The notes beneath the pieces were generated by a model. That model had not been told where the DNA came from and searched no databases. It saw only the letters and a list, made by a program, of their open reading frames with translations. Shown here piece by piece: positions 27,858-30,502 of a DNA stretch of 48,769 bases. The position numbers and the translations under genes are program-made. The stretch is from a virus (taxonomy: Duplodnaviria; Heunggongvirae; Uroviricota; Caudoviricetes): IMG/VR virus record IMGVR_UViG_2880412407_000007; one strand, 5' to 3'. How positions within the stretch are numbered: the stretch's first letter is position 1; the number at the start of each line of letters is the position of its first letter.

Positions 27858-29720
27858 TTATGATGATGCCGGTGCATTTATCTCCAGCATCAGACTTTCT
27901 ATCTCAACGCCATACGCTGCATTTTTTGTAACATCCGTCAGCGTCAGCGCATTCAGTCCCAGTGTCAGACTGTCTTTTATAACCTGGAATGCCGGGCCAG
28001 CCACTCCATTCAGTTTCGGAGTAACCGTGGCACTGCCGGCGGTGAACACCAGCTCCAGCGTCTGCCAGTCGTTACCGTAATCGCCGAACTCCCCCAGCTT
28101 CGTGTTTCCGGCTTTCCTGTGATGCATCAGATTCACTCTGCCGTCAGTGGTCTGAGTGAAGTACGACATCAGGAACGGATTACCGGTACCCGTCATCGCC
28201 ACACCATCAGGAACGGGAGCATCCGTATACAGATAAATCCCCAGCCCGAACTGATTGTTGGTCAGTGCGCCTGACAGGCGGAACTTACAGGTCAGTCTGC
28301 CGCCCTGTGTCAGCAGGGTAATTGCGTCATCCACCGGATGCGTCAGGGACCAGGTTTTATTGCTCTGCTTGGTGATCTTAAATACACCATCTGACAACTG
28401 AATTCCGCCATCCTTAATGCTCCAGCCCTGCGCAGCAGCCTCTCCGGCTGCCGGCAGCAGGGAGATTGTGCGAACGGACGTATCTGCAGACGGACCCGAT
28501 GGCGTGTTGCCGCCGGGCGAGGGTTTGATTTCCGGTGCCTTACCACTGATGAAGGCTGAGGTGCGCCCGGCTGCGTTCAGAATAGCGGTTGCCAGACGAT
28601 CCGGAATAATGCTCCTGCGCGCCCATGAACTGAAATGTGTCGGGCGGTTTGATGATACCTGGTTTCCATTCGTTCTCGATGCCGCACCGTAATATCCTGA
28701 TGCCGGAATATCCGGATCTTCTGCCGGCGCGTTAGTGGCGGTATTGACGCCGTTACCGTCTGTCATGAAGGGCACAAAATAAACGCCCTCACTCTCCCTG
28801 TTTTTATACCCGCCGTACACGGTGTCGTACTGGGTAGCGTATGTATTTTTCCAGTAATACGTCGTGTCACCACAAATCCACGGCACATCTGCAGCACTGC
28901 CACCATGGCACTGCGCGTTAAACACGGAGAGGTCAGCACGAAACTGTGTCAGCATGGCTGTAAACAGCGCAGGTTGCTGTGCGTGGGTGGCGGCGCTCAT
29001 GTCAAACTCTCCCTGCATCCAGCACACCGCCAGCAACACATTTTTCGGGTTCTTCTGTAATGCAGCTTTGGTGCGCGCAATCAGGTCCTGATATAACGGT
29101 TTACCCACACCCCAGCGCGCCGAATCCTGGCTGGCCCCCGTGTCCGCACTGAATGTCCCCTCCGCGCCCTGGGTAAATGCCGAACCACCACGACAGCATG
29201 GTACCAGCAGGATCCCCGCGTTATTCGGGATATACGGGAGCAGTTTTTTGGCAATATGTAACCCCTGGCCGACACAGCCGTACTGCCCTTTGCTCAGGTC
29301 TGCCTTCGGATGATTCAGCGTACTCATATCCTGCACATCATGCAGGCAGTGGTCGGCCGGAATAATATCGTTATATCTGCAGGCAGCCCCACCCGGCGTA
29401 ACTGTACTGCGGCGCGCCAGCTGTTTAATGCGCGGATCCGGAGCATCGTATGAATCCGGAAGCGGAAGCCCTTCACCGTAAGCCATGGCATTGGACTGCC
29501 CGGCCAGTACGATGACGTAGTACCACTCCGGCTCAGTTGCACCACTGACGATCACATCACCTTCTGCGACAATCGCCTGAATAAGTGCTGCGCCATCATC
29601 CGTATACGAAGAAAACGGCCCGCCGTATGGTTGCCATCCTTCACGAATTTTTTGAGCAAGTGCATCAGCAAGGTCTGACGGCGACACCGCCCTGACCACA
29701 TCGTAGTGTTTAAATGTCAT
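27858..29720 (-). CDS. nanS-p: prophage sialate O-acetylesterase NanS-p-like (SGNH/DUF303 hydrolase)
   Basis: 620 aa with the [13 protein letters not shown]-hydrolase motif near the N-terminus; sits in the slot between the late-region tRNAs and the lysis genes that NanS-p genes occupy in Stx phages. Confidence 0.8.
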
Positions 29721-29908
29721 GAATCCTCCCGGGCGGGATAATGTTGTGAGTAAAATGAGGAGCGGGCTGAAGTCCGGAAGTTACAGGACAATGGCAGAAG
29801 AGAGACAACAGCCCGCAATACGAAAAAGGCCGCGCTATTGCGCAGCCTTATAAACCCTGGTTAAAATCCACACGATAAAAATGACAATGCAAGTATCTCA
29901 TGCTGTTG

Positions 29909-29963
29909 CCCGAACCTACTCGGGCTTTTTTTGCATGTAAAAAGGCTCCTGCGATGAGGAGCC
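29909..29963. terminator. back-to-back rho-independent terminators between the tRNA cluster and nanS-p
   Basis: Plus strand: CCCGAACCTACTCGGG + T7 (29909-29932). Minus strand: GGCTCCTCATCGCAGGAGCC + TTTTT (29938-29963). Confidence 0.5.
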
Positions 29964-30250
29964 TGGATATATGCCTAATCTCTGTATACAGCATGATGCC
30001 GGGTGCCTCCCGGTGAATTCTGCAATGACCAGACAGAATCCGCAACTTGCCTATACAATACGCAACCAAACATCTGTCATTATGCCCCGCCGCCCAGGGG
30101 GATTCATCATGCAGGATTTTTTTAACAAACGCTCAGCATGTCAGGCAACAGTCGACTACCTGAATTGTGAGGCATTTAACATTTCACTGTCCGGTGTCTT
30201 TCCTGTAATAAAAAGCCCGCAAAAGAGAGTCAGGGCAGATAAGTGTGGTG

Positions 30251-30327
30251 TGGCGCGTTGTACTGGATTCGAACCAGTGACCGATTGCTTAGAAGGCAAT
30301 TGCTCTGTCCGGCTGAGCTAACAACGC
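30251..30327 (-). tRNA. tRNA-Arg (anticodon UCU)
   Basis: Cloverleaf read by eye: acceptor GCGTTGT/ACAACGC, D-arm GCTC...GAGC, anticodon loop CUUCUAA, T-loop GGTTCGAATCC, 3' CCA. Confidence 0.8.
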
Positions 30328-30340
30328 ATGATGCTGATAA

Positions 30341-30417
30341 TGGACCGCCATCGGGGACTTGAACCCCGCACAGCCAGCTTCGAAGGCTGACGCTCTATCC
30401 CGATGAGCTAATGGCGG
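30341..30417 (-). tRNA. tRNA-Arg (anticodon UCG)
   Basis: Acceptor CCGCCAT/ATGGCGG, anticodon loop CUUCGAA, T-arm CGGGGTTCAAGTCCCCG, 3' CCA. Confidence 0.75.
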
Positions 30418-30426
30418 TATGTGATA

Positions 30427-30502
30427 TGGTGGCCCTTGCTGGATTTGAACCAGCGACCTGGCGATTATGAGTCGCTCGCTCTCACCACTGAGCTAAAGGG
30501 CC
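30427..30502 (-). tRNA. tRNA with CAU anticodon (Ile2/ileZ-like, or Met)
   Basis: Acceptor GGCCCTT/AAGGGCC, anticodon loop CUCAUAA, T-arm GCTGGTTCAAATCCAGC, 3' CCA. Confidence 0.75.

Follow-up and report, generated by a model that had tools for sequence, protein, structure and literature searches.

Record IMGVR_UViG_2880412407_000007 of IMG/VR is a stretch of 48,769 nucleotides from a caudoviricete virus, here called the window. It contains the late-gene regulatory and lysis region of what is very probably a non-Stx lambdoid prophage of enterohaemorrhagic Escherichia coli (EHEC) O121:H19, a mosaic relative of the Shiga toxin (Stx) phages and essentially of the type of prophage Sp9 of strain Sakai. 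On the minus strand the order is the antiterminator gene Q, the late promoter and terminator pR'/tR', tRNA-Ile2(CAU), tRNA-Arg(UCG), tRNA-Arg(UCU), an interval of 530 bp, the esterase gene nanS-p and the lysis genes S/R/Rz. The original prediction, a reading of the sequence without database searches, had described a Stx-phage-type late architecture that lacks stx; this anatomy is real, the order was recovered on the minus strand and no stx was detected. The arrangement is already known, and each element has a published counterpart in the Sakai genome, in Tree et al. 2014, in the ileZ/argN/argO-type tRNAs known from Stx2 phages, in the NanS-p papers or in the work on StxS. Late regions of this kind, similar to those of Stx phages and free of stx, are routine in EHEC genomes and should not be read as toxin loss.

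Over 1.8 kb around the tRNAs the window shows 100% identity to seven complete genomes, and those with a serotype label are O121 or O121:H19. In strain 16-9255 the RefSeq annotation of the identical DNA places the region in a lambdoid prophage adjoining a dusA fragment and zur. A population study of O121:H19 reported a prophage at dusA in the lineage and the Stx2a phage at argW (PMC8767318). The identical matches, the dusA context and the location of the Stx2a phage at argW therefore identify the window as a non-Stx prophage of the O121:H19 lineage. An O26:H11 prophage with an intact Q shares 96.1% identity with the late region of the window.

The late module is collinear with that of Sp9 (Q, tR', tRNAs, small RNA slot, nanS-p, S, R and Rz, without stx), with 94.1% identity over 5.5 kb from the 3' end of a phage DNA methylase gene to Rz. 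The order in Sp9 is methylase, ileZ3, argO3, 524 bp, ECs_1781, S, R, ant and Rz. Common to both are the ileZ/argO tRNAs, an identical stx-less junction, an STnc100-type (EcOnc28) and an EcOnc03 small RNA (sRNA), a NanS-p protein (617 aa in Sp9, 95% amino acid identity), S, a DUF1327 protein, R, ant and Rz. Sp9 differs in its own intact 176-aa Q of a different kind, a full-length methylase and the lack of tRNA-Arg(UCG), whereas in the window Q is of YdfT type and broken by an insertion sequence (IS), the methylase is a remnant of 114 nt and all three tRNAs are present.

The point at which Stx phages carry their toxin genes is unoccupied in the window. Pairwise alignments to Stx1 and Stx2a phages place this insertion point for a moron at positions 30185..30209 (no strand assigned), where 25 nt (ATTACAGGAAAGACACCGGACAGTG) are found; at this point Stx2a phages have about 1.34 kb (promoter plus stx2AB) and Stx1 phages have stx1AB. 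In the late region from pR'/tR' to the lysis genes, 25-40 nt stand in place of stxA-stxB. No remnant of stx was found at the nucleotide or protein level: tblastn with StxA/B and sensitive word-7 blastn with the stx1 and stx2 operons over the whole window gave chance-level matches only, the sole match within the slot being flank shared downstream of stx1B, and in a k-mer comparison the 25-nt filler was no more similar to the stx2 operon than shuffled controls.

The two groups of Stx phages diverge from the window in different ways. Stx1a phages of the H-19B / YYZ-2008 type share the tR' (StxS) region bar one base, and their sRNA slot, nanS-p, S, DUF1327 gene and R are 95-96% identical, but they have a different Q and pR', carry the stx1 promoter and stx1AB directly past tR' and lack the tRNAs. 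The alignment to YYZ-2008 is near-perfect through tR', breaks, and returns about 70 nt past stx1B; between the breaks YYZ-2008 has the stx1 promoter with stx1AB, and the window has the methylase remnant with the three tRNAs. Stx2a phages (933W / Sp5 type, including Stx2_EH0505 at argW of O121:H19) have the same element order, with convergent sRNAs (EcOnc27/AsxR) and nanS-p downstream. The window matches the O121 Stx2a phage at 96.7% from 30898 to 30210, which covers tR', the methylase remnant and the three tRNAs; the roughly 1.34 kb with stx2AB are absent and homology resumes at 30170. Unlike the upstream part, the downstream slot and nanS-p of Stx2a phages are just 72-82% identical, and their anti-sRNA is AsxR and not EcOnc03.

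Among three prophages aligned, namely Sakai Sp9 (O157:H7), the O26:H11 11368 prophage and the window, the filler and the junction are identical. A 271-nt junction probe found the stx-less junction at a coverage of at least 80% in 490 of 5426 complete E. coli genomes, and the same junction occurs in seven stx-free phage records (PPwrbA phages, TL-2011a, Lahn2 and phi296/315/367). The stx-free state therefore predates the O121 lineage, and we conclude that the region is a long-standing stx-free module and not the product of a recent stx loss. The original prediction left open whether this was an stx-negative relative or a phage that had lost stx; the former is the better of the two, the junction allele being common to O121, O157 (Sp9) and O26 without stx remnant. 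It had also tied the tRNA and nanS-p arrangement to Stx phages, and in this it did not hold, as non-Stx lambdoid prophages often have the combination without stx (the 490 genomes, Sp9 and the seven phage records), though these are mosaic relatives and not unrelated phages. That a former Stx-converting phage lost stxAB by deletion in this lineage is very unlikely. The flanks are indeed very near to those of Stx phages, with tR' one base from YYZ-2008, the tR'-tRNA part at 96.7% to the O121 Stx2a phage, and nanS-p and its downstream flank 95-96% identical to Stx1a phages. Set beside the Stx1 phages, however, one cassette stands in for another (a methylase remnant and three tRNAs for stx1AB), which is a swap and not a deletion; compared with the Stx2a phages, the divergence of the downstream flank is too great for a simple recent deletion; and both the lack of any stx remnant and the identical filler and junction in Sp9, the O26 prophage and the 490 genomes argue for the older stx-free module.

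The stretch from the tRNAs to nanS-p looks empty but codes for known regulatory sRNAs, which annotation pipelines leave out. An sRNA gene of the STnc100 family (EcOnc27/28- and PasD-like) lies on the late strand at 29933..30141 (minus); it matches Rfam RF02076 over model positions 1-206 of 206 with 175.6 bits (E=2e-41; gathering threshold 47) and ends in a terminator at 29964-29943 (minus; -13.5 kcal/mol, z -4.6). By eye, it matches the region of the EcOnc27 northern probe with few differences. Convergent with it, at 29873..29932 on the plus strand, lies an ortholog of EcOnc03, an anti-sRNA of the AgvB/AsxR family, which was assigned from the Rfam AgvB model and the published EcOnc03. Locus and orientation agree with the published 51-nt sequence (PMC4104026 supplement), the one mismatch to Sakai Sp9 falling in the terminator loop, and the position in Sp9 is equivalent. 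The ortholog folds with -13.9 kcal/mol and has its terminator at 29908-29925 (plus). Ahead of EcOnc03 the sequence TTGCGC-17 nt-TTAAAA, with a TG upstream of it, can be read as a candidate promoter, and a candidate promoter for STnc100 is likewise readable. A further intrinsic terminator upstream of nanS-p on the late strand, at 29821..29849 (minus), was found by the terminator scan (-18.3 kcal/mol, z -3.8; fold 29849-29826).

The EcOnc03 ortholog scores 56.2 bits with the AgvB model RF02702 (gathering threshold 56) and 44 bits with AsxR (gathering threshold 63). It keeps the 3' module of about 42 nt and the terminator that are conserved among the AgvB/AsxR/EcOnc03 anti-sRNAs, and has the 5' variable region of EcOnc03 type (CGAUAAAAAUGACAAUGCA), without the CACAACA motif by which AgvB targets GcvB-R1 and, unlike AsxR, without the AsxR 5' sequence. 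By its sequence the plus-strand sRNA is thus a relative within the AgvB family and not AgvB itself. Tree et al. 2014 described convergent sRNAs between the PR' moron coding sequence and a conserved downstream open reading frame (ORF) in Sp3, 4, 5, 9, 10, 11, 15 and 17, and detected EcOnc03 of Sakai Sp9 experimentally as an Hfq-bound primary-transcript sRNA of 51-56 nt (PMC4104026). A preprint by Zhu, Shabalina and Storz (2026) reported STnc100/PasD beside genes for sialic-acid esterase, holin and lysozyme. The two sRNA genes of the window agree with both reports in their convergent orientation and in lying at the moron site of PR', a short way upstream of the esterase gene.

The original prediction had seen only back-to-back terminators in the slot at 29721-30250; the facing terminators are the 3' ends of the STnc100-family and EcOnc03-type genes. 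It is highly improbable that the 530 bp are geneless insulating DNA: the interval does hold three terminator-like hairpins and no convincing ORF, and RefSeq annotates nothing there, but a full-length covariance-model match far above its gathering threshold and a 60-nt match one nucleotide from an experimentally detected Hfq-bound sRNA speak for the two sRNA genes. A 73-aa ORF at 29848-30069 (minus) overlaps the STnc100 match; its counterpart is listed in YYZ-2008 as hypothetical protein gp41 and goes unannotated in RefSeq genomes, and it is probably a mis-annotated sRNA gene. Further Rfam matches to Leu/Trp leaders, Plastid-ycf2, YrlA, SNORD103 and GcvB lie far below gathering, over terminators or antisense to tRNAs, and were discarded as chance. 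Comparison of EcOnc03 with sRNA seed sequences gave just 7-9-nt complementarities, as expected by chance, and these were likewise rejected; no report of an EcOnc03 target was found in the literature searched, in which the 2014 study was the sole paper to mention EcOnc03. The one biological question that the region raises is the target of EcOnc03-type anti-sRNAs, and beyond annotation the significance of the region is small.

Q, placed at the head of the late order in the original prediction, is split by an IS3-family element. The 5' fragment (codons 1 to about 129, YdfT/Qin type) lies at 32629..33017 (minus; Pfam Antiterm PF03589, E=2e-21), and the 3' fragment (codons about 130-250), with a zinc finger and a second Antiterm domain (E=1e-30), at 31005..31371 (minus). 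Compared with the intact 250-aa Q of O26:H11 11368, 128 of 130 residues of the former and all 121 of the latter (O26 residues 130-250) are identical. The domains of a YdfT/Qin-type lambdoid Q are present upstream of pR', but its ORF is not continuous. RefSeq marks both halves as pseudogenes, the 5' fragment as 'antitermination protein, missing C-terminus'. The allele belongs to the ydfT type known from the cryptic prophage Qin (90.3% identity to K-12 MG1655), and a genome-wide search found this type of Q in 2412 of the 5426 complete E. coli genomes.

The inserted element spans 1257 bp (31372..32628, minus) at codon 130 or thereabouts and was delimited by alignment to intact Q, by its ends, its length and a three-frame translation. 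Its ends are TGTAGTGG...CCACTACA (TG...CA), and it is flanked by a 3-bp target duplication GAA, the left copy of which is formed by the last three nucleotides of the Q 5' fragment. With orfA/orfB and a programmed frameshift it has the features of the IS3 family, and RefSeq labels it 'IS3 family transposase, programmed frameshift'. This copy has one indel relative to strain 16-9255, which leaves orfB in two frames (ORFs 31631-32125 and 31380-31703) beyond the programmed frameshift; the extra frameshift marks the transposase as dead or else stems from a sequencing indel. Matches of O121 genomes alone reach the IS end (query position 1), other genomes matching from position 10; relatives from O26, O111 and O157 match from the first base past the IS and have Q intact. 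In the other, nleC-linked prophage of O121:H19 the antiterminator is of a different type (DUF1133).

Because Q is split by the IS, the prophage is unable to antiterminate its own late operon, and we infer that this operon is silent for lack of its own Q. The broken Q is useful to know when the inducibility of this O121:H19 prophage is judged. An intact, inducible stx-negative phage with a normally working late operon is barely credible. Most of the late, lysis, head and tail genes are there, and nanS-p, S, R and the tRNA genes are whole, but an IS with its 3-bp target duplication divides Q, a second IS interrupts yfdR, the reading frames for portal, capsid and tape measure are broken or deviate in the window, and RefSeq annotates no integrase at the dusA-side end of the prophage, the distal window end being left out of this comparison.

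The putative late promoter pR' (TTGCAT-17 nt-TAAGAT; 30945..30973, minus) was assigned by its position, which is after the stop codon of Q and before the first terminator. It is followed by a leader with two intrinsic terminators at 30665..30901 (minus), equivalent to the StxS region by alignment and folding. The T1 hairpin (30901-30874) and the tR' hairpin (30693-30671, with a U-tract at 30670-30665) fold with -14.0 and -14.5 kcal/mol (z -4.0 and -3.4); a consensus promoter/terminator scan missed pR' and both hairpins, and the terminators were confirmed by folding. The 231 nt from 30898 to 30668 equal the pR'-tR' interval of Stx1 phage YYZ-2008 bar one base, and the leader is 96.7% identical to that of the O121 Stx2a phage. 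StxS is the PR'-tR' transcript of Stx phages, which is cut by RNase E at GU/AUU (GUAUU) and activates rpoS (PMC7547250). The leader of the window has the sequence of this interval, the tR' terminator and GTATT motifs at 30760-30756 and 30751-30747; the agreement with StxS was established through the alignment to YYZ-2008 and not to the published StxS sequence, and processing at these motifs is predicted.

ARAGORN found exactly three tRNA genes in the window, all on the minus strand, and with Rfam and RefSeq bears out the anticodons CAU, UCG and UCU that had been read from the sequence: an ileZ-like gene of tRNA-Ile2 type (CAU, 30427..30502; 72.5 bits; RefSeq tRNA-Ile; Sakai homolog ileZ3), an argN-like tRNA-Arg (UCG, 30341..30417; 55.9 bits) and an argO-like tRNA-Arg (UCU, 30251..30327; 70.1 bits; Sakai homolog argO3). 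Placed between tR' and the moron site, they form an ileZ-argN-argO cluster that is 96.7% identical to the Stx2a-phage region. Upstream of them RefSeq annotates a pseudogene, the 3' remnant of a phage DNA methylase gene (114 nt, 30543..30656, minus), which is full-length at the same position in Sakai Sp9 and in PPyecE_EH1910. Prophage genes use AGA, AGG and AUA at 7.9, 6.4 and 7.2 codons per 1000, several-fold above the average of the K-12 genome.

In lambdoid and Stx phages PR' is constitutive, and Q-modified polymerase passes tR' and the downstream terminators into the moron, nanS-p, lysis and morphogenesis genes (PMC4104026 and PMC7547250, among others). In intact relatives of the prophage, Q loads onto RNA polymerase at pR', and transcription runs on past the tR' terminators, the tRNA cluster and the terminators of the sRNAs into nanS-p, S-R-Rz and morphogenesis. 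The stretch from the last tRNA to the gene for the STnc100-type sRNA is occupied in Stx phages by stxAB as a moron; here that site is unoccupied, with 25 nt. With Q broken, the PR' transcript would end at tR' and yield a StxS-like RNA. Both sRNAs would be transcribed in the lysogen from their apparent own promoters, independently of Q, and the tRNAs, possibly active in the lysogen as well, would decode the rare codons AUA, AGA/AGG and CGA/CGG. The nanS-p and lysis genes would be expressed only through leak-through at the terminators or with a compatible Q in trans. The nanS-p copy is probably poorly expressed unless such a Q is supplied, because it has no consensus promoter of its own and published nanS-p homologs are co-induced with stx.

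Several points weigh against parts of this account of a long stx-free prophage with a silent late operon. An ancient loss of stx in the ancestor of the whole stx-less allele may have preceded the state seen here. As a YdfT-type Q is present in so many E. coli genomes, a compatible Q may act in trans, and the silence of the late operon is deduced from the broken gene. The promoters assigned to pR', STnc100 and EcOnc03 are candidates read from the sequence, pR' having escaped the consensus scan; the same scan gave no promoter for nanS-p, and the AgvB score of the plus-strand sRNA sits at the gathering threshold of its model.

A further step, which we consider rather doubtful, would be that the whole RNA cluster (StxS-like leader, three tRNAs, STnc100-type sRNA and EcOnc03), 100% conserved across O121:H19 despite the dead Q, has been domesticated into a regulatory RNA island that is independent of Q, the slot being primarily an sRNA locus and EcOnc03 having a distinct core-sRNA target.

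The nanS-p gene (27858..29720, minus) encodes a 620-aa protein that is predicted from its domains and PDB matches to be a prophage 9-O-acetyl-sialate esterase. It consists of a DUF1737 (PF08410) N-domain, a SASA (PF03629) esterase domain and a DUF6645 (PF20350) lectin-like C-domain, the architecture by which NanS-p proteins are defined (PMC10462455), and matches NanS/YjhS (3PT5, E=5e-121) and the NanS-p C-terminal domain (6YP6, E=1e-29). Its naming as a NanS-p esterase in the original prediction is supported by 95% identity to NanS-p of Stx1 phage YYZ-2008 and to ECs_1781 of Sakai Sp9. Activity on Neu5,9Ac2 is predicted, the GQSN motif being kept relative to NanS and the activity being known for homologs. 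NanS-p genes occur in Stx and non-Stx prophages, and seven are functional in EDL933.

The lysis genes follow on the minus strand. A holin S of P21 class II type lies at 27493..27708 (Pfam PF04971, E=7e-32; RefSeq), a YdfR/DUF1327 protein gene between S and R at 27144..27488 (PF07041, E=7e-43), the endolysin gene R, a phage lysozyme, at 26560..27093 (PF00959, E=1.5e-24), an antirepressor-like gene between R and Rz at 25720..26289 (P22_AR_N, E=1e-45) and the Rz spanin gene at 25104..25538 (Phage_lysis, E=1e-46). Another O121:H19 prophage (NZ_CP022407.1, 1238000-1258000) has a frameshifted nanS-p, a single tRNA-Met-type gene and a DUF1133 antiterminator; late regions with nanS-p are therefore multi-copy and partly decayed in that genome.

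Taken as a whole, the window looks like a hybrid of two prophages. Its first 12 kb, with IS600, nleC, tail fibre, lom, J and part of the tape-measure gene, lie at a distance of about 2.15 Mb from the late region in a number of complete O121:H19 genomes; the two parts compared are window positions 1-12000 and 25000-48769, and in 2014C-3599 the first 12 kb and the late region are found at 2.585 Mb and 0.433 Mb. Inter-prophage chromosomal inversions (ydfJ/dusA) have been reported for O121:H19 (PMC8767318), and because of these a hybrid window is an expected outcome. The hybrid junction probably falls in the tape-measure gene (10664-13272), which has 95.8% identity with 17 gaps to the dusA prophage of 16-9255. 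The portal, major capsid and tape-measure frames (18585-20989, 16670-17721 and 10664-13666) are split or shortened relative to 16-9255 by one or two single-base gaps each, the portal reading as ORFs of 332 and 472 aa; the split structural frames represent either real decay or homopolymer errors in the source assembly.

The second IS3-family element, at 42636-43849, interrupts yfdR (5'-deoxynucleotidase) in the early region, and its RefSeq annotation includes an AL1L pseudoknot. At the tail-distal end a gene for an NleC-type type III effector (Peptidase_M85, E=8e-113) is found at 868-1854 (minus), adjoined by an IS600-type transposase orfB at 1-819 (plus) that is cut by the window edge. Between Rz and the terminase genes lies a gene for a PerC-family transcriptional activator (24326-24640, minus; Pfam PerC, E=5e-44). 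PerC homologs of EHEC prophages are candidate regulators of the enterocyte effacement locus (LEE).

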